A stretch of DNA of 34,775 nucleotides from an uncultured Desulfobacca sp. (lineage in GTDB: Bacteria > Desulfobacterota > Desulfobaccia > Desulfobaccales > 0-14-0-80-60-11), in NCBI GenBank assembly GCA_964398095.1, contig CAYNMI010000001.1, positions 1-34,775 of the forward strand, given 5' to 3'. A program made the translations under genes and the position numbers. The notes under the pieces were generated by a model that saw only the letters and a list, made by a program, of their open reading frames with translations, was not told the origin of the DNA and ran no database searches. Shown here one piece after another: positions 1,461-29,320 of the stretch; positions within the stretch are counted from its first letter, which is position 1; each line of letters opens with the position of its first letter.

Positions 1461-2132
1461 TCACATATATCTGATCTTCAAGGCCTTGCCGGAGACCAGG
1501 AGGATGGTGAGGCAGACGATGGAGATGATAATCACCAGGATCGTGGCCGTCTGGTCATTGCCGGCCTGGAAGGCGTCATACACCGCGGTGGACAGGGTTT
1601 GGGTCCGACCGGGGAGATTGCCGGCCACCATGAGGGTGGCGCCGAACTCGCCCATGGCCCGGGCGAAGGCCAACATGGCCCCGGCCAGAATCCCCCGCCA
1701 GGCCAGGGGCAGGGACACCCGGAAAAAGACCCCGGCCTCCGACAGCCCCAGGGTCCGGGCGGCATTTTCCAGATTGCCGTCCACCCCTTCAAACGCGGCC
1801 CGGGCCGTCTTGTAGATCAGGGGCAGGGAAACCACGGCCGCGGCCAGGACCGCGCCCTGCCAGGTAAAGATCAGGGAAATTCCCCAGGTTTCCTGGAGCC
1901 AATGACCCAGCCAGCCCTTGCGGCCGATCAAGACGATGAGGTAATACCCCAGGACCGTGGGCGGCATGACCAGGGGCAGGGTGCAGAGCGAATCCAACCC
2001 TTCCCGGCCCCAAAAGCGGCTCCGGGCCACCAGGAAGGCCAGGAGCACGCCGACGACAAAGGTCACCAGGGTCGCCACGGAGGCCACCTTTAAGGTCAAC
2101 CATAAGGGGGTCAGATTCACGGGGATATTCAT
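1461..2132 (-). CDS. modB: molybdate/tungstate ABC transporter permease (ModB-like)
   Basis: Track ORF 1461..2180 (-), trimmed to the ATG at 2132 (MNIPVNLTPLWLTLKVAS...). Multiple hydrophobic helices and the ABC-importer permease loop ENAARTLGLSEAGVFFRVSLPLA. The longer TTG start at 2180 would add a non-homologous-looking leader. Confidence 0.85.
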   Translation of the reverse strand: MNIPVNLTPLWLTLKVASVATLVTFVVGVLLAFLVARSRFWGREGLDSLCTLPLVMPPTVLGYYLIVLIGRKGWLGHWLQETWGISLIFTWQGAVLAAAVVSLPLIYKTARAAFEGVDGNLENAARTLGLSEAGVFFRVSLPLAWRGILAGAMLAFARAMGEFGATLMVAGNLPGRTQTLSTAVYDAFQAGNDQTATILVIIISIVCLTILLVSGKALKIRYM

Positions 2133-2292
2133 GCTATACCTTGCCTTGTCCAGCGAAATTCTGCCTTGGTAAAAAGGCAAGTTCCATACCAGCAGCGGGA
2201 TGCTAAAGAATAACTTGCTTTATTTATTGATAATATGTCCATCTTGACTGCAACTGATTGCGAACTCTGGCTAAAAATAATCATACAAAATC

Positions 2293-2391: not shown

Positions 2392-4035
2392 TTATTTTCC
2401 GAAGGGGCACTTGGGGAAGGTGCAGACTTTGCACTCCAGGCAAAAGGCCCCATGGCCTAGCTTCGCCAGGTCGCGCCGGGTCGGGAACCGGCCCGCCAGC
2501 AGTCGCGGCAGGAGGAGGTCGAAGCTGGTGGTTTTGAAGTACAAGGCGCAGGCCGGCACCCCCATGACCTGGACCGGCCCGATCCGGGCCAACAGGGTCA
2601 TGGCCCCCGGCAGGATGGGCGTCCCGTAACTCAGGTCAGTGGCCCCGGCCTCCAGGAGCCCCTGGCGGGTGACGTCGTCCGGGTCCACGGACAGGCCCGC
2701 GGTGGTCACCAGGAGGTCGATCCCCGCGCTGAGGAGTTCCTGCACCCCCCGGCGGATGGCCCCCTGGTCGTCGGGCACGATCAGGGATTTGACCACCTCC
2801 CCCTGAAATTTTTCCACCTTGCCGGTGATGATGGGGATAAACCGATCCTCCACCAGCCCCAAAAAGACCTCGGTGCCGGTGACCAGAATCCCCGCCCGGG
2901 GCCGCCGCAGGGGCAGGACGGTAAACAGCGGTCCCCCCTCCAGGACCGCCAGGGCCTTGACGAAGTCGGCCCGGGGCAGAAACAGGGGAATGGCCCGGGT
3001 GGCGCCCAGAGACCGCCCCTGGGCCATGAGGGAGTAGCCGGCGCGGCTGGCGCACATGACCCCTGGCACCAGATTGAACCTCTCCAGGCGGGCCGCAGCC
3101 ACCGTCAGCAAGCCGTCCCGGGCCGCCAGCAGGTTGATCTTGCCTTCCCGGGGTTTATCCGTAAAGGTCACCCCCTCCCCTGCCATGGCCCGGGCAAAGG
3201 CCAGGGCGGCCTCGTCCTCATGCACCCACTCCGGGCCGGGGCCGTCGTCGCCGACCACGTAGAGGTGGCGACGGCCCATCTGCTGCAGGCGGCAGAGGTC
3301 GCCCACGCCGATCACCTGGCCCTTCTCGAAGGCCGGACCTTTGCTGACCCCCGGGACTATCCTGGTCATATCATGCCAGGCCCGGCGGCCCACGGCCTGC
3401 TCCAGGGGCACGGCCTCCAGGGGCGGGGCCTCGATCCCAGCCTCGGCCTCCAGATAAGGGGCCTCACCCTGACAGGCCCGGCAGATGCCCCCATCCTGGG
3501 CCGGGTAGGCCTCCCGGCACAGGGGACAGATGACCATGGGGCCCCGGCGCTTCTGGTTCAGCAACTGCGGGCGGATGTTCACGGGCCGCCAGCTCAGGAG
3601 GTCCGGCCCGGCTTCTCTGATCTGAGCCAGAATCAATTCCTTGTCTTGTTCCGTCTTGGGTTTGAGCTTGAGATACCAGGTGTGGACCTCGGGCCAGGCC
3701 GCGGTCTTGGCCGGGTCCAGCCAGACCCGCACCCCGGCCCCCTCGTACTTGTCGTAGAGGTTGAGCGCGAACCGGCCCAGGTTGATGACCTTGAGCCAGC
3801 CGTTGCCGATGGTGCAGGGGGTGAGGAGCTGCACCGCGTCCGGCAGACAGGCCCGGGTTTCGCAGATGGCGTCGAAGATCCGGCCGGCCGGGAGCCGCCG
3901 CAGGGCCAGGTCCACCATGAAACCGCCGATGACCAGTCCCGGGGCCACGTTGCCGTGAAAGGCCTGGACCAGGCCGAGATAATCGTCAACCGTATAGGGG
4001 CCGATATGCCGGGGGATGTCGTGCTGCGCCGTCAT
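2392..4035 (-). CDS. FmdE-domain protein fused to a molybdopterin-binding (MoCF-biosynthesis / MoeA-MogA-like) domain
   Basis: Track ORF 2392..4152 (-), trimmed to the ATG at 4035 (MTAQHDIP...). The N-terminal part has FmdE-like blocks (GNVAPGLVIGGFM, CLPDAVQLLTPCTIGNG) ending in a zinc ribbon CPLC-x11-CRAC. The C-terminal part has molybdopterin-binding blocks (GILVTGTEV, LLVTTAGLSVDPDDVT, GTPILPGAMTLLA, GVPACALY) and a Cys-rich tail CLECKVCTFPKCPFGK. Confidence 0.75.
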   Translation of the reverse strand: MTAQHDIPRHIGPYTVDDYLGLVQAFHGNVAPGLVIGGFMVDLALRRLPAGRIFDAICETRACLPDAVQLLTPCTIGNGWLKVINLGRFALNLYDKYEGAGVRVWLDPAKTAAWPEVHTWYLKLKPKTEQDKELILAQIREAGPDLLSWRPVNIRPQLLNQKRRGPMVICPLCREAYPAQDGGICRACQGEAPYLEAEAGIEAPPLEAVPLEQAVGRRAWHDMTRIVPGVSKGPAFEKGQVIGVGDLCRLQQMGRRHLYVVGDDGPGPEWVHEDEAALAFARAMAGEGVTFTDKPREGKINLLAARDGLLTVAAARLERFNLVPGVMCASRAGYSLMAQGRSLGATRAIPLFLPRADFVKALAVLEGGPLFTVLPLRRPRAGILVTGTEVFLGLVEDRFIPIITGKVEKFQGEVVKSLIVPDDQGAIRRGVQELLSAGIDLLVTTAGLSVDPDDVTRQGLLEAGATDLSYGTPILPGAMTLLARIGPVQVMGVPACALYFKTTSFDLLLPRLLAGRFPTRRDLAKLGHGAFCLECKVCTFPKCPFGK

Positions 4036-4062
4036 TTTCGCCTCAGGCCGCCTTTTCCAGGT

Positions 4063-4078
4063 TAAGGGCGCGCCCTTA
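4063..4078. repeat. perfect 16-bp palindrome TAAGGGCGCGCCCTTA about 30 nt upstream of the FmdE-fusion start codon
   Basis: Read directly from the sequence; TAAGGGCG and CGCCCTTA are exact reverse complements. Could be an operator or a 5'-UTR hairpin. No U-tract follows on the minus strand. Confidence 0.5.
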
Positions 4079-4324
4079 CCGTTATATTTTAAAAAGAATA
4101 GCGCTAAACCAATAAAATATGCCGAGCAGTGGTTTCCACCCCACCCTGACATTCCAGAGAGCTTATCTTATTTCGATATTTTATTGAGAAAATAGCGTAA
4201 TTCGCACCTGATGACAAGCATTTTTTCGCGCCGCCAAGGCTTAGGTTTCACCCAAAAGCACCAGGGGGGGGCCGCATCATCCGGCCAGGCTGCCCCCTCC
4301 GGCAGACTCAGGCATAACGGCGGC

Positions 4325-7516: not shown

Positions 7517-7800
7517 AACTTTAGGGTGCGGGCCAGGGCCTGGCTTCTGCCGCCCGGTCTCGGTTTAAGTTAGTATCATAACCCGGTTTTGGCAAGAGAG
7601 GCGGGCCAGGGAGTGGCGCTGCCGCCAGGGCGCGCCCCGGCAAACCCCCGCCTCCATTCTAGAAGCGGGTGAAACCCGCCAGGATGGAGCAACATAAGAC
7701 GGTGAAGCACCCGGTGGCATCTCGCCGCCCGTGACCCGGGACACCCCGGACCCAGTGTCGCGTTTCGGGAAGACTTTAAAAAAGAAAAAACCTCATGTTT

Positions 7801-7834
7801 CCTCCCCCTTGATGGGGGAAGCTGAGAGAGGGAG
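7801..7834. repeat. small GC hairpin (CCTCCCCC ttgat GGGGGAAG) followed by a purine-rich tail; related in layout to the element at 29280-29320
   Basis: Read directly from the sequence. Intergenic, downstream of the cluster-1 operon. On the minus strand the hairpin is followed after about 10 nt by a T-rich run (complement of 7776-7795), so it may contribute to termination. Confidence 0.3.
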
Positions 7835-8149
7835 TGACAAAACCATGAACAGATACAAATCCTTAACCACTCCCACAGCAAGGGAGAGAGATTTTTAAGA
7901 CCATATCATAGATGGGATTGTTCCAACCAGGATTGAGGGCGCCCACCCGGGGGCGCGCCTGCGGGTGAGAAGCCTTTTGGCTTCCATAAGCGCAATTCGG
8001 TATTGGCCTCGGGGGAGTAATATACGGATGACCATGCCGGTCCCTTACGGCCGGGCCTCCGGAGACAAGAGCGGTTTCGCCTTTAACGCCTTACCGCTTG
8101 CCCGCATCGGTTCAGGGGCCGGGAAAAGAACTACCGGCTCATCATCGCC

Positions 8150-8389
8150 TCATTCCCCCTGCAACGCCGACTGGAGGCGCTGGTATTCCTCCCTGGCGTC
8201 CTGGGAAGATTTGGCCTCTGCCAACGCGGCCAGAATCCGGCGCAAATCCTCCCGCTTCACCGTGACGTGTTCGATCTCCGGCGGGCAGCCGTCCACTCTC
8301 TTGCCATCCAGATACCACCCATATTGGTGGTAACCCTCAGGCATCAGGACCGCGCCGCATTTTTGGCATTTTAAATATTCCGGACTCAT
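8150..8389 (-). CDS. small conserved Cys/His protein (79 aa), last gene of cluster 1; paralog of 28089..28319
   Basis: Strong RBS (AAGGAGGAGAA-ATG). Sequence MSPEYLKCQKCGAVLMPEGYHQYGWYLDGKRVDGCPPEIEHVTVKREDL... By hand alignment, 58 of about 79 columns are identical to the 76-aa ORF at 28089..28319. I recognise no family. Confidence 0.75.
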   Translation of the reverse strand: MSPEYLKCQKCGAVLMPEGYHQYGWYLDGKRVDGCPPEIEHVTVKREDLRRILAALAEAKSSQDAREEYQRLQSALQGE

Positions 8390-8531
8390 TTCTCCTCCTT
8401 GCCCCGCCCCGGGGCCAGGGCCGCGCCCTGGTGGCGGAGACCTGGTTTTGGAACCTCTTCGGTGCTGTCAGCCGTTACCCAACGGCCATTGAGGACCCAG
8501 ATCTTCATCCAAGAATCTCGGGGTTCCAGGT

Positions 8532-10964
8532 TTATACCGATTTGGTCAGGCCATACAAGGGATACCCCTCTTCCCAGCGTCGGCGAATTATCCGGTTATC
8601 CCGCAGTAATTCGTTCAAGACCGGGGCGACTTCATCCGACCGTTCCCCCAAGGCCCTGGCGATCGCCGGCGGATTGAGGGGACCGTCGGTCAAGGCCCCG
8701 ATGATCCTGGCGGCCAGATATTCCTCCCGCAGCACATCCTGCATGCTCTCGTCGAAATCCACGGCATTGCATTGATCGCCGGGAAATTCTTTCTCCGATG
8801 GCCTTCTCAAGCTCACTCCCAAAACCCAGCGGACCCGGGGCCGATGCATGGTGGCGTGGGCCGCCAGGAGCCTTTTCTTGGTGTCTTCGGAGCGATCCAC
8901 GGGCCCCACCTGGTCCAGGTGGTCCAGGAAAGAATCCGCCATGCGGATAAAGGCCTCGGGCTGGTTCACCTCCACGTATCCCAAGGCGATGCGTTTCCTC
9001 GACAATCCGGACATGGCCAGCAGCTTCTTCATCAGGTAAACCCGGTGCCAGGTATGGTCCACGCCATAGCCGTAATGGCAGGAGGCGGTGGGCGTACAGC
9101 CGGCCAGCAGAATGCCGTTGGCCCCGTTCAAGAAGGCCATGGACAAAACCGTGGGGTCGATGGAGCCCAGGCAGTTCACCGGGATCAGGTAAACCCGGCT
9201 GGAATAGGCGAGCCCCTTGACGGCAGCCTGCTCGGCCGCGCCCTGGCCGCCCCAACTGCACACCAAGCCCAATACCGCGTCTTGCGGCATCCGGGGGAGA
9301 ATGGCCCTGATCCGGGCTTCCAACTGCTGGGAGCTGTTGTTGAGCAGCTTCATGGCTTCATAGGGACAGGCCGCGGCGCAACTGCCGCCGCCGTCACAGG
9401 TATGGGGACTCACATGCCGGGGGACGGCGCCGTTACCGGCCGCCACACTTTCCACCCCGCCGCAAGTGCAGATCTCGTTGCAGAGTCCGCAGCCCTCGCA
9501 CAGGGACTGGTCCACGGTAACCACCACCAGGGGGCTGGCCAGGCCGCCTTTGCGGGCCTTATCGCGCAGGTGCAGGACTTCCCGGGCCGCGTTTTTCCCC
9601 TGGAGCAGAGCTTCGTCCAGATCGCAGAGTTTCAGGGCCGAACCGGTAAGAATCAGGGATTCCACCGGCTTTTGATCGGGCTTCAGGGCCATGGGACCCT
9701 TCTTCAGGCTGCCGCCGTTGTGCGAGAAGAGGGGCAGGCAGCGCATCAATTCCCGGGCCTTGGCCAGGGGCTCGCCGGGAATGGCTGAAACCACCAGGGT
9801 ATCCCAGCCGACCTCATGTTCCAGGTGATCGTGCGGGTTGACGTAATTCAGATATCCCGATTTGACCACCGGATGGATGTCAGGATTATAGGGATAAAGC
9901 CCGATGCCGCGCCGGCGGGCTTCCACCAGGTCGGGTCCGGTCAGAGGCAACCGAATGTCCGCGGGATACAACACCGTGGGCCTCACCTGGGGATAATTCT
10001 GCACCAACACCTGGCTGGTCCGCCAGGCCGCGGCGGCGGCGAGTTCCTGGGCCCGCCGGCCCTCTTCCCGGTGGTTGACCCAAAAGACCACGCTCCCGGG
10101 TGTTACCCGCTTCCGGGCTAAGCGCTCTTCCAGGTCCAACTGGTCAATGACCCGGTCCGCGCCCCCCATGGCCCAGCCCTCCTCACTGGCGAACTCCCGA
10201 TCCAGGGCCAGGATGATGGCCGAACCCCTCAGTTCACTGACGCCGCCGGGAGATTGCTGCAAACCCACGTGGTAATCCCCCACCTGCCCCATCACATATT
10301 CCACGGGCTGGTCCGGCGCCATCTTGACCCGGGGATTGGCAAAAACTTCCTGGAGCATGGCTTCCAGGTCCCGGAAGTTGAGGCGGTTGCCGGGATAGGT
10401 CCGTTGCAGTCCTGTCAAAACTTCGCCCGGGTCCCGGGCCCCGGGGAATATCAGGCTTTCCATGCCATGATGGGCCAGTTCCCGGGCCGCGGCGAAACCG
10501 GAAATTCCGCCGCCCAGGATCAGGGCCGGACCCTGAAAGTCCGCCAGCACCGGTGCATAGGGTTCCAGCGTTTCGAGGCTGGCCCGGGCGCCCTCCAGCA
10601 GGGCGAGGGCTTTGCGGGTCAGCTCCGGGGAGTCATCTTCATGCACGGCCGCCAGGTGATCTTTCAAATTGACCAGGTCCACCTGGGGCGCCATGATCCC
10701 CAACGGCTTCAGCTCGCGGGCAAACTTCTTTTTCATGATCCGGTCGGAACAGGCGCCGATGAGCACCCGGTTGAGGCCGTGGTCCCGGGCCAGACGGGTC
10801 AAGGCCGCCAGCCCCGGCGCCATGCATAAGTAGGGGTGGATACTGACGTGGCCCACCCCCGGTTCACGGCTCAATTGAGCCCCAACCTCCCCCAGATTCA
10901 TCCGGCCGCTGATTTTTTCCCCACACTCACAGAGAAAGATCCCCAGTTTCACGTCGTCTTGCAT
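8532..10964 (-). CDS. HdrA-like (C-terminal-half type) flavoprotein fused to a ferredoxin domain, an MvhD/FlpD domain and a winged-helix-like tail
   Basis: Track ORF 8532..11000 (-). I prefer the ATG at 10964 (GCGGAGG RBS 5 nt upstream); the alternative ATG at 11000 abuts the upstream stop. Motifs: LGIFLCECGEKISG (HdrA thioredoxin-like domain), ALILGGGISGFAAARELA (dinucleotide fold), CEGCGLCNEIC and CDGGGSCAAACP (ferredoxin-like), and VCSWGG...NCLGSIDP...LLAGCTPTASCHYGYG (MvhD block). Confidence 0.8.
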   Translation of the reverse strand: MQDDVKLGIFLCECGEKISGRMNLGEVGAQLSREPGVGHVSIHPYLCMAPGLAALTRLARDHGLNRVLIGACSDRIMKKKFARELKPLGIMAPQVDLVNLKDHLAAVHEDDSPELTRKALALLEGARASLETLEPYAPVLADFQGPALILGGGISGFAAARELAHHGMESLIFPGARDPGEVLTGLQRTYPGNRLNFRDLEAMLQEVFANPRVKMAPDQPVEYVMGQVGDYHVGLQQSPGGVSELRGSAIILALDREFASEEGWAMGGADRVIDQLDLEERLARKRVTPGSVVFWVNHREEGRRAQELAAAAAWRTSQVLVQNYPQVRPTVLYPADIRLPLTGPDLVEARRRGIGLYPYNPDIHPVVKSGYLNYVNPHDHLEHEVGWDTLVVSAIPGEPLAKARELMRCLPLFSHNGGSLKKGPMALKPDQKPVESLILTGSALKLCDLDEALLQGKNAAREVLHLRDKARKGGLASPLVVVTVDQSLCEGCGLCNEICTCGGVESVAAGNGAVPRHVSPHTCDGGGSCAAACPYEAMKLLNNSSQQLEARIRAILPRMPQDAVLGLVCSWGGQGAAEQAAVKGLAYSSRVYLIPVNCLGSIDPTVLSMAFLNGANGILLAGCTPTASCHYGYGVDHTWHRVYLMKKLLAMSGLSRKRIALGYVEVNQPEAFIRMADSFLDHLDQVGPVDRSEDTKKRLLAAHATMHRPRVRWVLGVSLRRPSEKEFPGDQCNAVDFDESMQDVLREEYLAARIIGALTDGPLNPPAIARALGERSDEVAPVLNELLRDNRIIRRRWEEGYPLYGLTKSV

Positions 10965-11000
10965 GGCCGCCTCCGCGTTGCCGCCCTTCGCCGGCGTCAT

Positions 11001-11579
11001 TCAGGCCACCGCCCGGACCCGGTTGAAGAATTGTTCCATGGCTCCGGTGGGACAGACGTACAGACAGGTCCCGCAGCCGATACACTCCGGACTGGGTAAG
11101 TGATAGGAGGTGGTCACTTCCTTGTGTACGCCCCGGTTGCCGAAGGATAAGCACCCCACCCCGGCCACCTCCTCACAGGCCCGGACGCAGAGGCCGCAGA
11201 GAATACAAACGTCCTCATAACGGCTGCTCTTGAACCTGGATGCTTTGACCCCATAGGTCTGGGCCAGAACTTGCAGCCGCTCCGAGCCGGGGTGCTCGTC
11301 CACCAACATCTGGAGGATCCACCGGCGCACGTTCTGAATGCGGTCGCTCTCGGTCCAGACCTTGAGGCCGGCCCGGATGGGATAGAGACACGATGCCACC
11401 ATCCGGCGCCGCCGGCCGTCGTCCACTTCCACCATGCACAGCCGACAGGCTCCGGACGGTTCCACCGCGCCATGCTGACAGAGGGTGGGGATATCGATGC
11501 CGTGCTCCCGGGCCACCTCCAGAATGGTCCAGCCGTCCTGGCCGCTGACTTCCCGGTCGTTGATGGTGAGATGAACCAT
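11001..11579 (-). CDS. [2Fe-2S] plus 2x[4Fe-4S] ferredoxin-type subunit (NuoG / HydA N-terminal-like)
   Basis: Track ORF 11001..11714 (-), trimmed to the ATG at 11579 (GGAGGA RBS). Starts MVHLTINDREV...; contains CRLCMVEV (2Fe-2S fold), CILCGLCVRAC and CIGCGTCLYVCP. Confidence 0.85.
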   Translation of the reverse strand: MVHLTINDREVSGQDGWTILEVAREHGIDIPTLCQHGAVEPSGACRLCMVEVDDGRRRRMVASCLYPIRAGLKVWTESDRIQNVRRWILQMLVDEHPGSERLQVLAQTYGVKASRFKSSRYEDVCILCGLCVRACEEVAGVGCLSFGNRGVHKEVTTSYHLPSPECIGCGTCLYVCPTGAMEQFFNRVRAVA

Positions 11580-11593
11580 GTCCCATCCTCCTT

Positions 11594-13507
11594 TTAGCAA
11601 ATCTCGATGGCGCCGAACTTGCACGCTTCCGCACAGGCGCCGCACTTGATGCACAGCGCCGGATTGATCCGGTGCGCCTCTTTTTTGGCGCCCGCAATGG
11701 CCCCGGCCGGGCATTCCCGGGCGCAGAGGGTGCAGCCGCTGCAGAGTTCCGGGTTAACGGTGAAAGTGATCAGGTCCCGGCAAACCTTGGCGGGGCACTG
11801 CTTTTTGAGGATGTGGGCCTCGTACTCCTCCCGGAAGTAGCGCAGGGTGGTGAGCACCGGGTTGGGGGCCGAACCGCCCAGGGCGCAGAGAGAGGCGTCC
11901 TGCACCGCCTGGGCCAGGGAGGTGAGTTCATCCAGGTCCTCCAGGGTGCCCTGGCCCCGGGAAAACTCCTCCAGCATGGCATGCATCCGCTTCAGTCCCA
12001 GGCGGCAGGGCGTGCATTTGCCGCAGGATTCGTCCATGAGGAAGTCCAGGAAATACTTGGCCACATCCACCATGCAGGTGGATTGGTCCATGACGATCAT
12101 ACCGCCGGAGCCCATGATGGACCCGGCCTCCCACAGGGAATCAAAGTCGATGGGCAGGTCCCACTTCTCTTTGGGGATGCAGCCGCCCGACGGGCCGCCG
12201 GTCTGCACGGCTTTGAACTCCCGGTCCCCCGGCACCCCGCCGCCGATGGCCATCACCATGTCCTTGATGGTGACCCCCATGGGCACTTCCACCAAACCCA
12301 CGTTCTTCACCTGGCCCACCAGGGAGAAGATCTTGGTGCCCGTACTGCCCGGGGTGCCGATGGACTTGTACCAGTCGGCGCCTTTGCCGATGATGACCGG
12401 CACGTTGGCCCAGGTCTCGACGTTGTTCAGGTTGGAGGGGCGGCCCCAGAGCCCCTTCTCCACCGTATGGACATACTTGGCCTTGGGTTCGCCGGGGTGG
12501 CCTTCAATGGAGGCCATGAGGGCCGTGGATTCGCCGCAGACAAAGGCCCCGCCTCCCAAATTGATTTTCAGGTCGAAATTGAAGCCGGTGCCGAAGAGGT
12601 TCTCTCCCAGGAAGCCGGCCTCCCGGGCCGCAAAAATGGCGTTTTGGAGCGTCTTCACCGCCAGGGGGTACTCGGCCCGCACATAGATGTAGCCTTCGCT
12701 GGCCCCGATGGCGTAGCCGCCGATGAGCATGCCCTCCAGGATGGAGTGGGGATCGCCCTCAATGAGGCTCCGATCCATGTAAGCCCCGGGGTCCCCTTCG
12801 TCGGCGTTGCACAGGACATACTTGGGCCACCCTTTGGCCTTCCGGCAGGATTGCCATTTGACCCCCGTGGGGAAACCGCCGCCGCCCCGCCCCCGCAATC
12901 CCGAGGCGATGATCTGTTCTATGACCTCCTCCGGGGTCATGGCGGTCAGGGCTTGATACAGGGCGGCATAGCCTCCCCGGGCGATATAGTGCTCCAGATT
13001 GTCCGGGTCGATGAAGCCGCAATTGCGCATGGCCAAGCGCCGCTGCATCTTGAAAAAATCCAGTTCCTCATAGAGCGGCACGGAGGCCAGGAAGCCCTTC
13101 AGTTGTTTCCGGCGGTATAGTCGCCGGGGACCGCCATCCAGGAGCATCTCATCCACGTCGATCCGGCCCAGGAGACGCTTTTCCGGATAGCGGATGGAGT
13201 TCATCTCCTCCCAAAATGATTCCACCGCTTTGGGGGTCATGAGCTCGTAGGTCAGGCGGGGGCTGGCCGGCCAGATGAGGTCCACCAGCGGTTCCTTGTA
13301 ACAGAAACCGATGCAGCCGGTCTTTTCCACCACCCCGTCCCACGCTTCGGCCTCGGCCTTCCGGCGCAACAGATCATAGACCTGCTGGGCTCCCGCGGCC
13401 AGGCCGCAGGTGGCCATGCCCACCAGAATCTTGGGCTTGGGGGGGTAAAGGGAGGCCAGGCCGGCGTCCTTCACCTTCTGCAAATCCTCGAGGTTGGTGA
13501 TCTTCAT
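11594..13507 (-). CDS. NuoF / HydB-like NAD(H)-binding FMN iron-sulfur flavoprotein
   Basis: Track ORF 11594..13624 (-), trimmed to the ATG at 13507 (MKITNLEDLQKV...). N-terminal thioredoxin-like 2Fe-2S domain (MATCGLAAG, GCIGFCYKEP). GRGGGGFPTGVKW (FMN site), CNADEGDPGAYMDR and ESCGKCTPCRLG (4Fe-4S). C-terminal CSGCTLCARECP / CIKCGACAEAC. Confidence 0.9.
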   Translation of the reverse strand: MKITNLEDLQKVKDAGLASLYPPKPKILVGMATCGLAAGAQQVYDLLRRKAEAEAWDGVVEKTGCIGFCYKEPLVDLIWPASPRLTYELMTPKAVESFWEEMNSIRYPEKRLLGRIDVDEMLLDGGPRRLYRRKQLKGFLASVPLYEELDFFKMQRRLAMRNCGFIDPDNLEHYIARGGYAALYQALTAMTPEEVIEQIIASGLRGRGGGGFPTGVKWQSCRKAKGWPKYVLCNADEGDPGAYMDRSLIEGDPHSILEGMLIGGYAIGASEGYIYVRAEYPLAVKTLQNAIFAAREAGFLGENLFGTGFNFDLKINLGGGAFVCGESTALMASIEGHPGEPKAKYVHTVEKGLWGRPSNLNNVETWANVPVIIGKGADWYKSIGTPGSTGTKIFSLVGQVKNVGLVEVPMGVTIKDMVMAIGGGVPGDREFKAVQTGGPSGGCIPKEKWDLPIDFDSLWEAGSIMGSGGMIVMDQSTCMVDVAKYFLDFLMDESCGKCTPCRLGLKRMHAMLEEFSRGQGTLEDLDELTSLAQAVQDASLCALGGSAPNPVLTTLRYFREEYEAHILKKQCPAKVCRDLITFTVNPELCSGCTLCARECPAGAIAGAKKEAHRINPALCIKCGACAEACKFGAIEIC

Positions 13508-13512
13508 GGTCC

Positions 13513-13980
13513 TCACCTCTTGCGGTAGTCTTTGACCAGTTGGCCGGCCTTCCTCTGGTTGAGGTTGCCATGAATCTCGTCGTCCACCCGGGCCACCGGC
13601 CCCATGGAACAGCATCCCAGACACCGGACCTTGTTCAGGGAGAACTTGAGATCCCCGGTGGTCCCCTCGGACCCCGGAATTTCCAGGTCGCGCCGCAGCT
13701 TGTCATAGACGTTGGTGGCGCCCTTCACGTGGCAGGCCGTACCCATGCAGACACAGACGTCGTGCTCGCCCTTGGGTTCCAGGCTGAAGGACTTGTAAAA
13801 CGTGGCCACCGCCCAGCCCCGGGCCACGGGCACCCCCAGATGGTTGCAGACCGCCGTCAAGGCCTCCGGCGGGATAAAATTGAATTCCGCCTGGACCTCC
13901 TGGAGGGCGCTGACCAGATGTTCCGGACTGGGCGGATACCGCTCCAGGATGGTTTCCATTCTGCCGAAAGATACGCTCAT
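13513..13980 (-). CDS. NuoE / HydC-like [2Fe-2S] thioredoxin-like ferredoxin subunit
   Basis: 155-aa ORF with the NuoE-type cysteine pattern CVCMGTACHVKG ... CLGCCSMGP. GGAGGG RBS. First gene of the operon. Confidence 0.9.
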   Translation of the reverse strand: MSVSFGRMETILERYPPSPEHLVSALQEVQAEFNFIPPEALTAVCNHLGVPVARGWAVATFYKSFSLEPKGEHDVCVCMGTACHVKGATNVYDKLRRDLEIPGSEGTTGDLKFSLNKVRCLGCCSMGPVARVDDEIHGNLNQRKAGQLVKDYRKR

Positions 13981-14022
13981 GGCCCTGCCCTCCGCCTTCT
14001 GGAGTATTTACCGCAATGCCAG

Positions 14023-14038
14023 AGCAAGCTTGAGGCCA
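14023..14038 (-). promoter_or_regulatory. sigma-54 (-24/-12) promoter of cluster 1: TGGCCTCAAGCTTGCT
   Basis: The reverse complement of 14023-14038 reads TGGCCTCAAGCTTGCT. GG and GC have the canonical spacing of TGGCAC-N5-TTGCW (positions 2-3 and 14-15). It lies about 40 nt upstream of the NuoE-like ATG and downstream of a sigma-54 activator gene. Confidence 0.6.
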
Positions 14039-14372: not shown

Positions 14373-15773
14373 TTAGAGATTAATTTCCGCCGCATTGATC
14401 TTATAGGCCTTCATCTTGCGCCAGAGCTTGCTGCGATGAATTTTCAGCAGGCGCGCTGCCTCCTGCTTGTGGCCGGAGGCCTGCTGCAGCGCCTTGACAA
14501 TGGTTTCCCGTTCCATGGCCTCCAGAGGGCTGATGGAGGGTTCTTCCCACAGGGCTTCGGTATGGAAGCGGGAGGCCTCCAGGGGCGGCAGGTGGCGCCG
14601 GGTGATAATCGGCCCTTTGGCAAACACGAAACAGTACTCCAGGACGTGCTGCAGCTCCCGGATATTGCCGGGCCACAGGTGGCGGCTGAAGGTCTTCATG
14701 ACCATGGGGTCCACCCCCCGGACCCGTTTGTTGAATTTGCGGTTGAGCTTTTCCAGAAAGTGCTTGACGAGAATCGGCAGATCCTCCCGTTTGTCCCGCA
14801 GCGGCGGCAGATGAATGGGCACGGTAAAGAGACGGTAGTACAGATCATCCCGGAATTTCCCCTGGCGCATGGCCTCCTTCAGGTCAACATTGGTGGCCGC
14901 GATGATCCTGGCCTCCAGGGGGATTTTGCGGTTGCCGCCCACCCGTTCGTAAGCCCGGTCTTCCAGGACCCTCAAAAGTTTTACCTGGATTTCCGGCCGG
15001 AGTTCGCCGATTTCATCCAGGAACAGCGTCCCGCCCCGGGCCGCCTCGAACCGGCCCGGTTTGGAGGCCACCGCCCCGGTAAAGGCCCCCCGTTCATGGC
15101 CAAAAAGCTCGGACTCCAGCAGGGTCTCGGGAATGGCGGAACAATTTACGGCCTGAAAGGGTCCCTGGCGCCGGGGACTGTGGGCGTGGATGGTCCGGGC
15201 CACCAGTTCCTTGCCGGTGCCTGACTCCCCCTGGATCAGCACATTGGACTCGGACGCGGCAATGATGGGCAGTCTCTGAATGAGCTCCTGTATCTGGGGG
15301 CTGATCCCCACAATCAGGGCCATGGCCTCCCGTTCCTTCTTCCCGGACGCCGGCAGGTGTAAGGCGTTCAGGTCATGAAAGGTTTCTATGCCCCCCAGGA
15401 TCAGGTTGCCGGCCTTCTTGATTTGGGAGGTATTAACCAGGATTAATCTTTTCTGTCCCCCTTTGGTGAGGATTTCCACCTCCCGGTCCAAGACGTATTC
15501 CCCGGTGGTCATGGAGATGCGCATGGGGCATCTTTTGTGGCACAACTCGCTCTGGAAGATTTCCCAGCAGAACTTGCCCAGGGCTTCCTCCCGGGAGAAC
15601 CCGGTGATTTCCTGGGCGGTTTGGTTAAAATAACTCAGTTGCCACCGGGTGTTCACCACGAACACCCCCTCGGGGAATTGGTCCAGGATCTCCGCATGAT
15701 TGAGGCCGAGGAATTTGAGGGCCCGGTCCATATTCTGATGGGCATTCTTTTCAAACGTCAGCACTGGGTCCAC
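14373..15773 (-). CDS. sigma-54-dependent transcriptional activator (PAS - AAA+ - Fis-type HTH), no receiver domain
   Basis: GTG start with a GGAGG RBS. PAS domain ([26 protein letters not shown]) carrying C-x8-C-x3-CP. Walker [15 protein letters not shown] loop (ERGAFTGA), Walker [12 protein letters not shown]-terminal [22 protein letters not shown]. Confidence 0.9.
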
Positions 15774-15949: not shown

Positions 15950-15965
15950 AGCAATTTCTATGCCA
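15950..15965 (-). promoter_or_regulatory. sigma-54 promoter of the cluster-1 activator gene: TGGCATAGAAATTGCT
   Basis: The reverse complement of 15950-15965 reads TGGCATAGAAATTGCT, with canonical GG/GC spacing. The 16-mer is identical to 19988-20003, which lies upstream of the paralogous activator. Confidence 0.6.
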
Positions 15966-18682: not shown

Positions 18683-19345
18683 TCAGCCCCGCACCATGGA
18701 TTGGCCGCACTGGGGACATTTCACCTGCATGCAGGGAATCCCGCGCTCATGGGGAGCGCTGGCGCCGCAAGCCGGACAGCGGCAGACATCCTGCACTCCC
18801 GCCCCCTGGCCCGTGCCTGGCGCCCTGGCCCCGCCGCCCTGAACCCGGCACTGGCCGCGCCCTCCGCCTTGCCCCTGGCCCCCGCCTTGCCTTTGGCCCT
18901 GGCCTCCGCCTTGTCCTCTACCGCCCCTTCCGCCTGGCATGGTATCTTTTCCTCCTGGTTGATTGTTTTGAGGTGAGTCATCCGGGTTCCGGCAACCCTG
19001 GCGGTAGCGCCTGGGCCCCCGGCATCCCGGCAGCCAAAACTCCGGTTCTCCCAGGCGGTCTTCCCGATAGGCCCTGAGAACCTCGTCCACTGCGCCCGCC
19101 ACCCCAGAGATCACCCTCAACCCCTGGTGCCTCGCGCCATACAGTAATTCGAGGCTCAAAGCGCCGCAGATCAGGGTGTCGACCCCTTTTTGCCGCAACA
19201 CTTTGAGACGGTCCAGGGCCTCCATATCCGGAAACCGCAGTTCCTCCTCCGGTCCCTCCCCCGAGTCGTCAGGGAAGATGAGAATCCGAGAACACCAGTT
19301 CAACACCGGCGCCACCCGAGTCCACATAACCGGTATGGCGATCAT
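18683..19345 (-). CDS. NifX-like domain fused to a Gly/Gln/Arg-rich linker and a C-terminal double CxxC zinc-ribbon-like tail
   Basis: Track ORF 18683..19381 (-). Start tentatively at the ATG at 19345 (MIAIPV...). N-terminal part has VDTLICGALS and GLRVISGVAG, consistent with a NifX-like fold. Then MPGGRGGRGQGGGQGQRQGGGQGQGGGRGQ, then CRCPACG...CMQVKCPQCG. Confidence 0.65.
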   Translation of the reverse strand: MIAIPVMWTRVAPVLNWCSRILIFPDDSGEGPEEELRFPDMEALDRLKVLRQKGVDTLICGALSLELLYGARHQGLRVISGVAGAVDEVLRAYREDRLGEPEFWLPGCRGPRRYRQGCRNPDDSPQNNQPGGKDTMPGGRGGRGQGGGQGQRQGGGQGQGGGRGQCRVQGGGARAPGTGQGAGVQDVCRCPACGASAPHERGIPCMQVKCPQCGQSMVRG

Positions 19346-19987
19346 GCCTGTCCCCAGCCATGGGGTTCTGGAAATCGGCAATATTTCCTCACAGGGTCAC
19401 TCCCGGAACAACCTGATGACCAACTTCATTCGCATCTTACCTAAGCAGGTTATGTGCCAACCCTGATGGTTGCTGGGAATCGCACCTGCCGGGAGACCAT
19501 CGCCGGGCCAACTGGGGACAAAATGTCCCCACTCCGTTGCCGGACCACGAGGAGAGCAGCCAGGGCCCGGACGCCCCGGCAGCTTGCCCAGCCCAACCCC
19601 TCAGGGGGCGCCGCCTGCCGGGATTCGGGGGCCTTGCCGGCCCCGCCACCAAGATGACGGATACTCTCGCAAAGAAAACCCGGGACCCCATCTGCAGGGC
19701 CGAATGAACCGCGCGGTTCACGTCCGGTTCCGGGACGGCGGGGGGGTCGGATTTCCCCCACCCCACTGGATGATGCAAGGGCAGAATTGCTCAGGATGGC
19801 TGTATCGGCTGGAGAAAAATCCGCGCTAAGCGGCGCCGATCCTCACGCTAGCCGGGGCCGCACCTGCCGGCGGGCCCCCACTCTGCGGGATCACGCCCGC
19901 CAACCCATCAAAATTTCCCCCGGCAAGTTATCGGGCGGGACCGCTTCACTGGACTTTTTCAGGCTGCCAGGCCTCGTGAGAATTTTC

Positions 19988-20003
19988 TGGCATAGAAATT
20001 GCT
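19988..20003 (+). promoter_or_regulatory. sigma-54 promoter of the cluster-2 activator gene: TGGCATAGAAATTGCT
   Basis: Canonical GG (19989-19990) and GC (20001-20002) spacing. About 120 nt upstream of the activator start. The 16-mer is identical to the minus-strand site at 15950-15965. Confidence 0.6.
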
Positions 20004-20122: not shown

Positions 20123-21799
20123 ATGGATGCCGATTGTGGAGTATTGGTGGTAAGCCGCCACGGCAGACTGTTGGCCGCCAATTCCCTGGCGGAGTCCCTT
20201 CTCGATTGCCCTCTGCCCTCCGGTAGTCACTTAGATGATAGCTTGCTGGCCCGTTCCCTCACCCGGCATGGCCATCCCATCTGGGAAATGCTGAGCTGCG
20301 GGGAGGAAGAACAGGGACTTTTGCAAGCCGACGACGCCGTGGGTACCGGCATTTTCTATAGGTGCATCCCCCTTTACAACGAAGACAATATGGTCACGGG
20401 CACGGTCATCACCCTGGAAAGAAGGACCGACGAAGCCCTGAGCCAGGCGTTGCAATTCTTGGGGCTGACGCACGATGAGATCATGGACCAGTTCCCGGAG
20501 GGGGTGTTCGTGATCAACACCCTGTGGCAGCTCAGTTATTTTAATAAGACCGCCCAGGAAATCACCGGGTATTCCCGAGACGAAGCCATGGGCAAGTTCT
20601 GCTGGGAAATCTTCCGGAGTGAGCTCTGCCACAAGAAATGCCCCATGAATGTCTCTATGAGCACCGGCCAAACCCTTTTGGATCAGGAGGTGGAAATCCT
20701 CACCAAGTCTGGTCAAAAACGCATGGTTCTGGTGAATAGCGCCCAGATCAAAAACCCGGGCCACAAAGTCCTGGGAGGGGTGGAAACCTTTCATGACCTG
20801 AGTTGCTTCCAGTATCCCGCGGAAATGAAGGACCGGGGGGTTTTTGCGGACATCGTCGGGGTCAGTCCCCAGATGCAGGAAATTATCCAGAGACTTCCCG
20901 TCATCGCCGCCTCGGATTCCAATGTGCTGATCCTGGGCGAGTCGGGCACCGGCAAGGAGCTCATCGCCCGGGCCATTCACCTGCTGAGTCCCAGGCGGAA
21001 AGCGCCCTTTCAGGTCGTCAATTGTTCGGCGATCCCGGAGACTTTATTGGAATCCGAGCTTTTTGGCTATGAGCGGGGGGCCTTCACCGGGGCCGTGGGC
21101 AGTAAGCCGGGGAAGTTCGAGTTGGCTCGGGGCGGCACGCTTTTCCTCGATGAAATCGGCGACCTCCGGTCGGAACTGCAGGTAAAGCTGCTGCGGGTGT
21201 TGGAGGATAGGGCCTTCGAGCGGGTGGGGGGCAACCGGAAAATTCCCCTGGAGGCCAGGATCATCGCGGCCACCAATGTGGAGTTGCTGGAAGCCATGCG
21301 CCAGGGCCGGTTCCGGGACGACCTTTACTACCGGCTGTTCACCGTACCCATCCACCTGCCGCCCCTCCGGGACAAGCGGGAAGATATTCCCATTCTGGTC
21401 AAGTACTTCCTGGAACAGCTCAACCACAAGTTTAACAAGAGAATCCGGGGGGTGGACCCCAAGGTGATGAAACTTTTCTGCCGTCACCCCTGGCCCGGCA
21501 ATGTGCGGGAACTGGAGCATGTCCTGGAATACTGCTTCGTCTTTGCCAAGGGTCCTTTAATTACCGAGCGTCATCTGCCGCACCTGGAAAGCGCCTGGCC
21601 CGGCCGGGAACTGGAGGGCGTCGATAGGTCCCTCAGCCCCTTGCAGGTGCTGGAACGGGAAACCATTATCAAGGCCCTGGAGCAGGCGTATGGGAGCAAG
21701 CAGGAGGCGGCTCGCCTGCTGCAAATCAGCCGCAGCAAATTATGGAGAAAGATCAAGGCTTATCAGATTGAGGCGGTTGATTTCAAAGTGAAACATTAA
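20123..21799 (+). CDS. sigma-54-dependent transcriptional activator (extra N-terminal PAS-like region - Cys-PAS - AAA+ - HTH), paralog of 14373..15773
   Basis: Track ORF 20108..21799, trimmed to the first ATG (20123). [67 protein letters not shown], and HTH QEAARLLQISRSKLWRKIK. Collinear with the other activator over its whole length. Confidence 0.9.
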   Translation: MDADCGVLVVSRHGRLLAANSLAESLLDCPLPSGSHLDDSLLARSLTRHGHPIWEMLSCGEEEQGLLQADDAVGTGIFYRCIPLYNEDNMVTGTVITLERRTDEALSQALQFLGLTHDEIMDQFPEGVFVINTLWQLSYFNKTAQEITGYSRDEAMGKFCWEIFRSELCHKKCPMNVSMSTGQTLLDQEVEILTKSGQKRMVLVNSAQIKNPGHKVLGGVETFHDLSCFQYPAEMKDRGVFADIVGVSPQMQEIIQRLPVIAASDSNVLILGESGTGKELIARAIHLLSPRRKAPFQVVNCSAIPETLLESELFGYERGAFTGAVGSKPGKFELARGGTLFLDEIGDLRSELQVKLLRVLEDRAFERVGGNRKIPLEARIIAATNVELLEAMRQGRFRDDLYYRLFTVPIHLPPLRDKREDIPILVKYFLEQLNHKFNKRIRGVDPKVMKLFCRHPWPGNVRELEHVLEYCFVFAKGPLITERHLPHLESAWPGRELEGVDRSLSPLQVLERETIIKALEQAYGSKQEAARLLQISRSKLWRKIKAYQIEAVDFKVKH

Positions 21800-21945
21800 G
21801 CTCGTTTTCGCGACATTCTTTAAAAAGATAATCATTGAATATTTCAAATAAAAATTAATGTGCGCATGAAATTGTTTTAATTCCGCTCATTTTCTCCTTT
21901 TCTCTCGGGCTGGCTTTTTTCTCTCTTTGAACCCTTTTTAAAATT

Positions 21946-22006
21946 TTGCGACATTTTTATATATTATAACTAATTGATATTTCGATTAATTATCAATATG
22001 TCGCAT
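21946..22006 (+). promoter_or_regulatory. candidate activator-binding (UAS) inverted pair TTGCGACAT ... ATGTCGCAT upstream of the cluster-2 sigma-54 promoter
   Basis: TTGCGACAT (21946-21954) and its inverted partner ATGTCGCAT (21998-22006) flank an AT-rich segment containing ATTGATA/TATCAAT. A third copy, TCGCGACAT, is at 21808-21816. Related copies occur upstream of cluster 1 (complement of 14348-14355 and 14192-14199). Confidence 0.3.
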
Positions 22007-22095
22007 AAAGTGTCTTAATTCCGACTATTTTTAGGCCAAATCAGGCTTTTGAGCCTATCAGATAAATTTCCATTATATCAATTAGTTAAGTTATT

Positions 22096-22111
22096 TGGTC
22101 TCTTCTTTGCA
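22096..22111 (+). promoter_or_regulatory. sigma-54 promoter of cluster 2: TGGTCTCTTCTTTGCA
   Basis: GG at 22097-22098 and GC at 22109-22110, with canonical spacing. About 160 nt upstream of the hdrL ATG. An IHF-like match TATCAATTAGTTA (22076-22088) lies just upstream. Confidence 0.55.
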
Positions 22112-22270
22112 CTGCTTGTGCGCATAAAGGCTCAAACCAGAGACAGAGGCCAGGATTATGAGCGGGATGGACCGTCCCTAGCAGGGCCCTGGAATCCGGA
22201 GCGCCGGGATCACCCCTCTTCCGGGTCAGGGGGCACCATAACAACCAGGCAAGGTTCTTCAGGGGGCGCT

Positions 22271-26748: not shown

Positions 26749-26913
26749 ATGCAAGCGGAATTCCCGGCGTTTCTGGGTAAAGGATGCGCTTATGCCAGTA
26801 CTGCCTCGGACAGGATGTCCCGGTTTCCGTATCCCTCTCAAATCCGGGTCATTTTCAACCTGGGTGCCGGCAGGTGGTTCCGGTCTAAGAGCTGGAGGCA
26901 GGAGGGACCATGA
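26749..26913 (+). CDS. 54-aa ORF resembling only the N-terminal third of MvhD, with most Cys ligand positions substituted (possible remnant or adaptor)
   Basis: Below the track's size cut-off; my own translation gives MQAEFPAFLGKGCAYASTASDRMSRFPYPSQIRVIFNLGAGRWFRSKSWRQEGP. Compare MvhD at 28445: ILAFLCKWCSYASADLAGVSRFQYPPNIRVMLTMCSGRV. The ATG is 2 nt after the hdrL stop, and the stop overlaps the next start (ATGA at 26910-26913). Confidence 0.4.
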   Translation: MQAEFPAFLGKGCAYASTASDRMSRFPYPSQIRVIFNLGAGRWFRSKSWRQEGP

Positions 26914-28031: not shown

Positions 28032-28088
28032 ATAAGCCAGGTCGGGCCGGCGCCGAGGACTCGCGGCGCCGGGCAAGGAGGGAAAACC

Positions 28089-28319
28089 ATGTCGGAATAT
28101 TTAAAGTGCCAAAAATGCGGCGCCGTCCTGACGCCCGAGGGCTACCACCAATACGGCTGGTATCTCGACGGCAAAAAAGTGGACGGCTGCCCGCCGGAGA
28201 TCGACAACGTGACGGTGAAGCGGGAGGATTTGCAAAAGCTCCTGGCCGCGCTGGAGGGGGCTGAACCTTCCAAGAAGGATGAATACCAACGCCTCCGGGC
28301 GGCCCTGGAGGGCAAATGA
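28089..28319 (+). CDS. small conserved Cys/His protein (76 aa), paralog of 8150..8389
   Basis: RBS AAGGAGGGAAAACC-ATG. Sequence MSEYLKCQKCGAVLTPEGYHQYGWYLDGKKVDGCPPEIDNVTVKREDL... It includes an identical 26-nt stretch (GTGGACGGCTGCCCGCCGGAGATCGA) shared with the reverse complement of the cluster-1 copy. Confidence 0.75.
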   Translation: MSEYLKCQKCGAVLTPEGYHQYGWYLDGKKVDGCPPEIDNVTVKREDLQKLLAALEGAEPSKKDEYQRLRAALEGK

Positions 28320-29203: not shown

Positions 29204-29279
29204 GGAGGGGTGGCAAGGCCGCATACGTAGATCCCGGGGCGAAATCTATAGCATTTGCCGAAAGTCTTTTCCTCTTATT

Positions 29280-29320
29280 CCCTCTCCCCCCAGCGGGGGG
29301 AGGGTTAGGGTGAGGGGGGA
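29280..29320. repeat. REP-like GC hairpin element (CCCTCTCCCCCC agc GGGGGGAGGG TTAGGGTGAGGGGGG) in the mvhD-hdrA spacer
   Basis: Read directly from the sequence. It resembles the short intergenic 'GGGTTAGGGTGAGGGG' hairpin repeats I recall from many GC-rich bacterial genomes, which generate spurious small ORFs (track ORFs 29184..29378 and 29246..29470). A looser relative is at 7801-7834. Confidence 0.4.

Follow-up and report, generated by a model that had tools for sequence, protein, structure and literature searches.

A family of small cysteine-containing proteins encoded beside long MvhD adaptors in multi-HdrA gene arrays of uncultured bacteria

A 34,775-nucleotide stretch of DNA from an uncultured Desulfobacca sp. 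(contig CAYNMI010000001.1, assembly GCA_964398095.1; hereafter the window) contains two genes for a small cysteine-containing protein, one in each of two operons that encode HdrA-like and MvhD-like redox proteins. The two proteins belong to a family that is itself undescribed, with three invariant cysteines, and in nearly all related loci the small gene lies directly upstream of a gene for an MvhD-type [2Fe-2S] adaptor that contains selenocysteine (Sec) and has a winged-helix extension. We hold with moderate confidence, at about an even chance of being right, that the protein is a small, metal-stabilised subunit with a structural or accessory role, docked on the module of long MvhD adaptor and HdrA.

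The two small genes in the window

The two genes and their ribosome-binding sites are as follows.

8150–8389, minus strand: small Cys protein, copy 1; 79 amino acids (aa); last gene of operon 1, right after the gene for the HdrA'/MvhD/extension fusion
28089–28319, plus strand: small Cys protein, copy 2; 76 aa; between the FrhB-like gene and MvhD(Sec)
8394–8400, minus strand: Shine-Dalgarno sequence AAGGAGG of copy 1, 4 nt ahead of the ATG, read from the sequence
28075–28081, plus strand: Shine-Dalgarno sequence AAGGAGG of copy 2, 7 nt ahead of the ATG, read from the sequence

An earlier note, made from the sequence of the window alone, had listed both open reading frames (ORFs) with these coordinates and lengths and had described their Shine-Dalgarno sites as strong, and was right on each count. 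Its hand alignment, with 58 identical positions over about 79 columns, and its 26-nt stretch of identical DNA need small corrections: BLASTP gives 56 identities over 76 positions (74%, with 92% positives, E 8e-43), and the longest stretch without a mismatch is 27 nt. At the DNA level the two copies form a 211-nt inverted repeat (I3) of 82% identity, 8201–8411 versus 28064–28274, which includes the ribosome-binding site. Copy 1 matches the family profile at E 3e-38, and a six-frame profile search of the window found exactly two copies of the gene.

The small gene is real and under purifying selection. Between the copies the Nei-Gojobori estimates are 0.56 synonymous substitutions per site (dS) and 0.14 non-synonymous (dN), and the resulting dN/dS of 0.25 means that both are maintained as protein-coding genes. 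For the first 45 codons alone the ratio is 0.11, and for the remaining ones 0.49. The antisense ORFs that overlap the small genes are ordinary shadows in GC-rich DNA.

Extent of the family

A word-indexed search of 5.8 billion clusters returned 5 proteins with a single query and 55 clusters with a 15-sequence profile. The members are 53–105 aa long, with identity to copy 1 down to ca. 33%, and come solely from metagenome or run assemblies (JGI, ENA, Logan and NCBI metagenome bins). Where a name is given it is 'hypothetical protein', and no member has a Pfam domain. The only taxonomic hint among the relatives is the NCBI name 'Thermodesulfobacteriota bacterium' on a fragment 76% identical to the neighbouring MvhD extension.

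An exhaustive HMMER search of 1.84 billion 50%-representatives turned up no further kind of member and no version fused to another domain. Some 30 large proteins matched the profile in multiple stretches; those that were scanned are CCHC-knuckle, Ig, PKD, LRR or Lcl repeat proteins, and these matches were set aside as repeat or low-complexity noise. Also rejected was the idea that the small protein split off from HdrA or MvhD as a domain: the matches include no fused form, and loci that lack the gene have no such domain. Two pattern-based scans of 185,579 species genomes (one genome per species) found no relative, although scans of this type do not prove absence.

Both window proteins were compared with Pfam and NCBIfam, with nothing at E<=0.01, and literature searches found no description of the small protein, of DUF7479 (see below) or of a zinc-ribbon subunit of HdrA complexes. 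The family was called uncharacterised in the earlier note, and no Pfam, NCBIfam or PDB assignment was found for it here. While the family is undescribed, both its fold class and the notion of a redox complex with a small Cys-rich subunit are already familiar. Three cysteines with a variable fourth ligand would be unusual for a ribbon, and the strict tie to long Sec-containing MvhD adaptors in a three-HdrA array is new.

Conserved residues and predicted fold

Residues were counted in an alignment of the 55 members, 50 of which are full-length. Cys8 and Cys11 are present in all 50 of these, and Cys35, Glu18, Trp25 and Tyr26 in all 55; Lys10, Ala13, Tyr20, Tyr23, Leu27 and Gly29 are almost invariant. 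The ligand pattern proposed earlier, C-x2-C-x9-H-x13-C, has the correct spacing (C8-x2-C11-x9-H21-x13-C35) and its three cysteines are invariant, but its histidine is not conserved: His21 is replaced by Leu in 10 of the 55 members, and so cannot be an essential ligand.

A more variable position lies close to Cys35. Three residues after it, in the motif C-P-x-E, position 38 is Glu or Asp in 48 of 55 members. Five of the seven members without an acidic residue there have an extra cysteine, Cys34, directly before Cys35 (…E-C-C-S/A…), and about 12 members have an extra cysteine at position 34, 36, 37 or 39. No cysteine was found beyond position 39 in the aligned family. Such a pattern of compensation would be expected if the metal had to have a fourth ligand close to Cys35, for which more than one residue can serve.

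Conservation does not extend to the C-terminal half. The charged helix described in the earlier note is found in 31 of the 55 members, both window copies among them, as a two-helix segment of the Y-Q-R-L-x-x-A-L type; the other 24 have short tails, often rich in Pro, Arg or Lys, and the net charge of the tail ranges from -5 to +10.

AlphaFold2 models had a mean predicted local distance difference test score (pLDDT) of 68 with a 5-sequence alignment and 75 with 48 sequences, and 84–86 over residues 11–30. Both models have a knuckle, strands at residues 14–19, 22–27 and 30–32, and then helices at 46–58 and 63–77. The core (residues ca. 5–40) is predicted to be a three-stranded zinc-ribbon-like domain with a degenerate second knuckle, outside any curated family. 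The first knuckle, C8-x2-C11, precedes the predicted beta-hairpin as in a zinc ribbon, while the second consists of the single invariant Cys35, the acidic residue at +3, and in some members a further cysteine nearby.

Profile matches to curated zinc ribbons were below threshold in the 48 members scanned. The recombinase zinc beta-ribbon Zn_ribbon_recom (PF13408) matches 22 of 48 at E<=1 over residues 4–47, without reaching its gathering score (best 18.1 bits against a cut-off of 25.3, E about 0.0033–0.0036). DUF7479 (PF24292) matches 34 of 48 at E<=1, also below its gathering score (best 20 bits against 27), and only over a 16-residue knuckle (profile positions 27–44 of 60). The top Foldseek matches, weak and non-significant, were zinc-ribbon subunits of RNA polymerase and LysW. 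Stand-alone zinc-ribbon mini-proteins of this kind (RPABC4/Rpo12, RPC10, LysW) are similar to the small protein in having ca. 35–40 residues, an N-terminal C-x-x-C knuckle, a three-stranded antiparallel sheet and a second Cys turn, and are usually small metal-stabilised docking subunits of larger complexes. They differ in that the small family has a single invariant cysteine in the second knuckle (G-C-P-x-E) rather than C-x-x-C; its W-Y-L-D-G hairpin signature and its link to Hdr/MvhD operons are likewise peculiar to it.

Gene order around the small gene

Operon 1 of the window encodes, in order, NuoE-like, NuoF-like and HoxU-like proteins, the HdrA'/MvhD fusion and small copy 1. Operon 2 encodes an HdrA(Sec)-GltD-like-HdrA fusion, an FrhB-like protein, small copy 2, MvhD(Sec) and HdrA. 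It had been noted that both copies lie in equivalent positions after flavoprotein genes, which is true loosely: copy 1 follows the HdrA'/MvhD fusion and copy 2 the FrhB-like gene. The feature truly common to both positions is an adjoining coding region for MvhD plus the winged-helix extension.

In total, 23 loci were recovered, 15 of them with sequence downstream of the small gene. In 14 of these 15 the small gene is directly upstream of a Sec-MvhD gene, the distance from its stop to the MvhD start (M..FEPKILAFLCKWC) being -17 to +222 nt. The negative value is from locus L017, in which the stop overlaps the MvhD start by 17 nt, and suggests translational coupling. The link to Hdr/MvhD genes is seen in every informative locus, which bears out the association with Hdr-like genes suggested earlier, but the constant neighbour is the Sec-MvhD with a winged-helix extension, not 'the flavoprotein'.

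Five loci (L014, L015, L017, L018 and L020) have the same nine-gene array: NuoE-NuoF-HoxU-HdrA'/MvhD(807–810 aa)-FrhB-HdrA(Sec)-small-MvhD(Sec)+extension-HdrA(Sec). In each of them the gene calls for HdrA, MvhD and HdrA are split by TGA, and the HdrA'/MvhD fusion is conserved at 54–57%. Locus L016 has the order HdrA(Sec)/GltD fusion-small-MvhD(Sec)-HdrA(Sec), with the orthologous fusion split into calls of 67 aa and 1394 aa. The small-MvhD junction is found again on short contigs (L002-4, L005, L010–L013, L019 and L021), and an HdrA gene comes after MvhD in L010, L011, L013–L017 and L019–L021.

The position of copy 2 is ancestral. The fused HdrA'/MvhD gene of the ancestral array has no small gene after it, which makes copy 1 a lineage-specific duplicate. 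Copy 2 is nearer to its ortholog P0003 (82%) than to copy 1 (76%). Within the window only two things are duplicated – the small gene with its ribosome-binding site (82% DNA identity) and a sigma-54 activator gene (77–79%). As the array was split into two operons and the small gene duplicated, each operon keeps a copy beside a coding region for MvhD plus extension.

Comparison with BamF

The closest described architecture is that of BamF in class II benzoyl-CoA reductase (BCRII), for which a structure by cryo-electron microscopy is available. BamF is an MvhD-homologous adaptor more than 100 residues longer than other MvhDs, contains the selenocysteine Sec19, and joins a HydBC-type confurcating module, BamGHI (NuoE/F/G-like), to the HdrA-type bifurcating BamE; its winged helix-turn-helix is a protein-protein interface to BamI, the HoxU/NuoG-like subunit (bioRxiv 10.64898/2026.04.10.717634). 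Between the BamF cluster and the bifurcating flavin adenine dinucleotide (FAD) there is a gap of ~28 Å, across which the structure leaves the electron path unresolved, and thiol/selenol chemistry beside the MvhD/BamF cluster has been proposed for HdrA-type systems (bioRxiv 10.64898/2026.04.10.717634).

The MvhD next to the small gene resembles BamF in its MvhD domain, its winged-helix extension of more than 100 aa and its Sec; 'BamF-like' here refers to architecture only. Its Sec is at residue 68 (G-U-HFGDCHY), compared with Sec19 in BamF. The window genes also resemble the Bam system in having a NuoE/NuoF/HoxU-like (BamGHI-like) set together with HdrA-like (BamE-like) proteins. Unlike the Bam system, both the window and the conserved array lack BamB/C/D, and the window has FrhB- and GltD-like modules instead. 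Because the winged helix of BamF is a protein interface, the extension of the window MvhD is plausibly a docking platform.

Proposed role of the small protein

Four features point to a metal-stabilised mini-domain: the three invariant cysteines, the compensation at a fourth position, the predicted ribbon and a hairpin rich in aromatic residues. The adjacency to MvhD, the occasional overlap of stop and start codons and the duplication of the small gene after the array was split point to a protein that works with the long MvhD adaptor and is made in step with it. From these lines of evidence we infer metal binding, a physical association with MvhD/HdrA, and a structural rather than a redox role. 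In the proposed mechanism, one metal ion would be held by Cys8 and Cys11 (the C-x-K-C-G knuckle) and Cys35 (G-C-P). The fourth ligand would vary, being usually Glu/Asp38 (C-P-x-E) or an extra cysteine next to Cys35, possibly aided by His21. The protein would be made together with the long Sec-containing adaptor of BamF-like architecture and would dock on the adaptor/HdrA module of a multi-HdrA complex for flavin-based electron bifurcation. The C-terminal two-helix part is a lineage-specific add-on, the variability of the tail pointing to docking that differs by lineage, and the hosts are uncultured bacteria, probably Thermodesulfobacteriota. Of the ideas put forward in the earlier note, a metal-binding knuckle or small subunit fits best.

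Several observations weigh against this proposal. The canonical Cys4 zinc site is absent, since the second knuckle has one cysteine. Searches of the PDB by sequence, whether with one protein or with the profile, had no match below E 0.17, and Foldseek searches of the PDB with the two AlphaFold2 models had none below E 1. The solved BCRII complex has no reported small subunit of the zinc-ribbon type (bioRxiv 10.64898/2026.04.10.717634). One locus breaks the synteny: on the 1.7-kb contig VFSW01271911.1 (L001; small gene at 1218–1454) there is no recognisable MvhD start in the 213 nt downstream. This locus has no Hdr gene upstream either, its 3' flank is still like that of window copy 2, and a rearrangement or a chimeric assembly may lie behind it. 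Finally, the MvhD-extension family is larger than the small family, with 141 clusters, and two distant MvhD(Sec) loci with the winged helix-turn-helix (L022 and L023, 52–56% identity), with the order GltD-HdrA-MvhD(Sec)-HdrA-MvhD, have no trace of the small protein in 20 kb. The small protein is thus dispensable for the basic module, and must be an accessory of one subclade rather than a universal part of the module.

The same two loci (L022 10549–14051; L023 10617–14106) have an unsplit HdrA call of 1008 aa followed by a second, short MvhD of 122–126 aa. The small protein and the second short MvhD could be alternative solutions to one need.

Alternative explanations

The first alternative, unlikely but with some chance of being correct, is that the protein is a rubredoxin-like one-electron carrier, in which Cys8, Cys11, Cys35 and Glu38 (or Cys34) bind a mononuclear iron that relays electrons from the [2Fe-2S] cluster of MvhD to the cofactors of HdrA. 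The small protein has much in common with rubredoxin: the C-x-x-C-G and G-C-P-x-(E/C) knuckles, an aromatic mini-core of invariant or near-invariant residues (Y20, Y23, W25, Y26), its size, and its place in a redox operon of an anaerobe, where the small gene is surrounded by redox genes only. An extra centre would also be sensible given the ~28 Å between the cluster of BamF and the bifurcating FAD (bioRxiv 10.64898/2026.04.10.717634). However, none of the 48 members scanned matches the rubredoxin model at E<=1. The fourth cysteine of rubredoxin is Glu/Asp in most members of the small family, and the knuckles are 23 residues apart, compared with ca. 30 in rubredoxin. The identity of the fourth ligand also varies by lineage (Glu, Asp, or Cys at several positions), which suits a structural site more than a tuned redox site, and the related loci L022 and L023 manage without the protein.

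There is a small chance that the protein is an assembly or maturation factor for the Sec-containing long MvhD, non-stoichiometric, holding the adaptor during cluster insertion or HdrA docking. An assembly factor was also among the proposals of the earlier note. Small Cys-rich chaperones are common in metalloenzyme operons, and the position of the small gene right upstream of MvhD(Sec), at times with overlapping stop and start, would suit one. Against this explanation, copy 1 comes after an MvhD fusion of the Cys type rather than the Sec type, a Sec-type MvhD with the winged helix-turn-helix has no small gene in L022 and L023, and the Pfam and NCBIfam scans gave no similarity to known maturation families.

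The more speculative proposal of the earlier note was a thiol/disulfide redox partner, whose CxxC pair would be reduced to the dithiol and oxidised to the disulfide in turn (or form a selenenylsulfide with the Sec of MvhD) and replace the heterodisulfide as acceptor. The lack of any HdrB, HdrC or BamD (CCG-domain) gene in the window or the conserved array is in keeping with it, as is the thiol/selenol chemistry already proposed near the MvhD/BamF cluster of HdrA-type systems (bioRxiv 10.64898/2026.04.10.717634). Yet the CxxC is part of a ribbon knuckle and is accompanied by an invariant third cysteine and by compensation at a fourth position, as in a metal site. AlphaFold2 predicts a beta-ribbon and two C-terminal helices rather than a thioredoxin-like fold, with no Pfam match to thioredoxins. 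The known proteins of this type, DsrC/TusE, which are disulfide substrates of HdrB/DsrK-like enzymes, are likewise small Cys proteins encoded with Hdr-related genes, but the small protein lacks their flexible C-terminal arm with two cysteines, has no similarity to them in sequence (no Pfam or NCBIfam match), has a different predicted fold, and has no CCG-domain (HdrB/DsrK) partner in its loci. A protein substrate would also require a route of re-oxidation, and none is encoded nearby. As no positive evidence was found for this proposal, while fold and ligand pattern are metal-ribbon-like and L022 and L023 do without the protein, it is improbable. A redox-active subunit that bridges the [2Fe-2S] cluster of MvhD to the FAD of HdrA, by an Fe(Cys)3(Glu/Cys) centre or by thiol/selenol exchange with the MvhD Sec, has a low but real probability, about that of a maturation factor.

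A small nucleic-acid-binding regulator, made up of a zinc ribbon and a charged tail and acting in autoregulation of the operon or in translational coupling to the downstream selenoprotein gene, is just as improbable as the thiol partner. The sub-threshold similarity to the DNA-binding recombinase ribbon, the strongly basic tails of many members (up to +10) and the winged-helix motif of the neighbouring MvhD are in its favour. Set against these, neither the charge nor the type of the tail is conserved, both operons already have dedicated sigma-54 activators and promoters, and the corresponding winged helix of BamF is a protein interface, not a DNA binder (bioRxiv 10.64898/2026.04.10.717634).

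A non-functional ORF, arisen by chance or decaying in a GC-rich window with many overlapping shadow ORFs, is effectively refuted by conservation – the invariant residues across 55 clusters, a dN/dS of 0.11–0.25, and the conserved position and ribosome-binding site.

Operons and selenoprotein genes of the window

The other genes of the two operons were assigned as follows.

13513–13980, minus strand: NuoE-like, operon 1 (Pfam, NCBIfam)
about 11594–13624, minus strand: NuoF-like, operon 1 (Pfam, NCBIfam)
11001–11714, minus strand: HoxU/NuoG-N-terminal-like 2Fe-2S/4Fe-4S protein, operon 1 (Pfam, NCBIfam)
8532–11000, minus strand: HdrA-like protein with MvhD domain and C-terminal extension, 822 aa, Cys form (Pfam FlpD 576–699, NCBIfam HdrA2)
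22271–26746, plus strand: HdrA(Sec)-GltD/NfnB-like-HdrA fusion, in-frame TGA at 22448–22450 (SNDCAM-U-IVSPKL; Pfam, NCBIfam)
26910–28031, plus strand: FrhB/FdhB-like flavin/FeS protein (Pfam FrhB_FdhB_N, FrhB_FdhB_C)
28445–29203, plus strand: MvhD-type [2Fe-2S] adaptor, 252 aa, winged-helix extension of ca. 115 aa, in-frame TGA at 28646–28648 (G-U-HFGDCHY), residue 68
29445–32480, plus strand: HdrA, in-frame TGA at 29631–29633 (TNDCAM-U-IISPKL; NCBIfam HdrA2 E 1.5e-240)

The NuoE-like/NuoF-like/HoxU-like set resembles an NADH/ferredoxin module of the HydBC/BamGHI type. The three in-frame TGAs are at conserved Cys positions and are read as predicted Sec, the HdrA motif (S/T)NDCAM-U-I(V/I)SPKL occurring twice and the MvhD motif once; because of them, a mechanical list of ORFs splits three selenoprotein genes. 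In the stand-alone MvhD, Pfam FlpD matches both ORF halves, and residues 1–136 match the solved MvhD chain 7bkb_F at E 3e-42; solved MvhD chains have just 129–141 aa. The extension matches HTH_24 (E 1.7e-4) and MarR_2 (E 5.6e-4), and is homologous to the extension of the fused MvhD of operon 1 (E 8e-9).

The Pfam and NCBIfam scans found no HdrB, HdrC, BamD or other CCG-domain gene, and no AOR gene, in the window or in the 20-kb related loci. Rfam gave nothing in the window, and no tRNAs were found there. Flanking the Hdr operons are genes for an FmdE domain fused to a molybdopterin-binding MoCF_biosynth domain (2392–4152, minus strand), an ABC permease (1461–2180, minus strand) and a protein similar to those binding the FeMo-cofactor of dinitrogenase (18683–19381, minus strand). 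They hint at a Mo or W enzyme nearby, which could be the catalytic partner that the array lacks.

Between the HdrA fusion gene and the FrhB-like gene of operon 2 there is a spacer (26762–26874) of which 113 nt are 74% identical to the 5' part of the MvhD gene (28470–28582). On a near-identical contig (L009), the matching spacer contains an ORF (2150–2404) that looks like a degenerate MvhD N-terminus. This similarity suggests that the spacer is the remnant of an MvhD gene, and that FrhB may have been inserted into an older HdrA-(small)-MvhD junction like that of L016.

Regulation of the two operons

Ahead of each operon is a gene for a PAS/sigma-54 activator, 14390–15726 on the minus strand and 20443–21776 on the plus strand. 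The two are recent inverted paralogs with 77–79% DNA identity over ca. 1.3 kb. An identical 16-mer, TGGCATAGAAATTGCT, a motif of the -24/-12 type, is found ahead of each activator gene (15950–15965, minus strand; 19988–20003, plus strand), and suggests that the activators may themselves be expressed in a sigma-54-dependent manner. Sites similar to sigma-54 promoters, with the form GG-N10-GC, are located ca. 40 and ca. 160 nt upstream of the first genes of operons 1 and 2, respectively: TGGCCTCAAGCTTGCT (ca. 14022–14037, minus strand) and TGGTCTCTTCTTTGCA (ca. 22096–22111, plus strand).

A 330-bp AT-rich region (21800–22130) ahead of operon 2 contains repeats of GCGACAT and TGCGCAT(A/G)AA, which could be binding sites for the activator, though the count of these motifs across the window is not above chance. 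G/C-rich palindromes that resemble each other are located downstream of small copy 1 (ca. 7790–7840, minus strand) and between MvhD and HdrA in operon 2 (ca. 29270–29330, plus strand), with the sequences …CTTCCCCC-ATCAA-GGGGGAGG…, then a T run, and …CCCTCTCCCCCCAGCGGGGGGAGGG…. They may be terminators, attenuators or REP-like (repetitive extragenic palindromic) repeats.

Significance

Flavin-based electron bifurcation in methanogens, sulfate reducers, syntrophs and anaerobes that degrade aromatic compounds is built around HdrA/MvhD modules. The subunit lists of these modules are mostly derived from annotation, which overlooks proteins of 60–80 residues. The impact of the present family is limited, as it is narrow – 55 clusters, from uncultured hosts only – and its role is inferred, but it is a clean case for defining a new small-protein family. 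It also provides a concrete candidate for an overlooked subunit on the long, BamF-type MvhD adaptor. A redox-active small subunit, if true, would be a natural answer to the ~28 Å electron-transfer gap described for the BamF-BamE pair. The family marks an uncharacterised array of nine genes, with three HdrAs and three selenoproteins, in bacteria of freshwater and wetland sediments.

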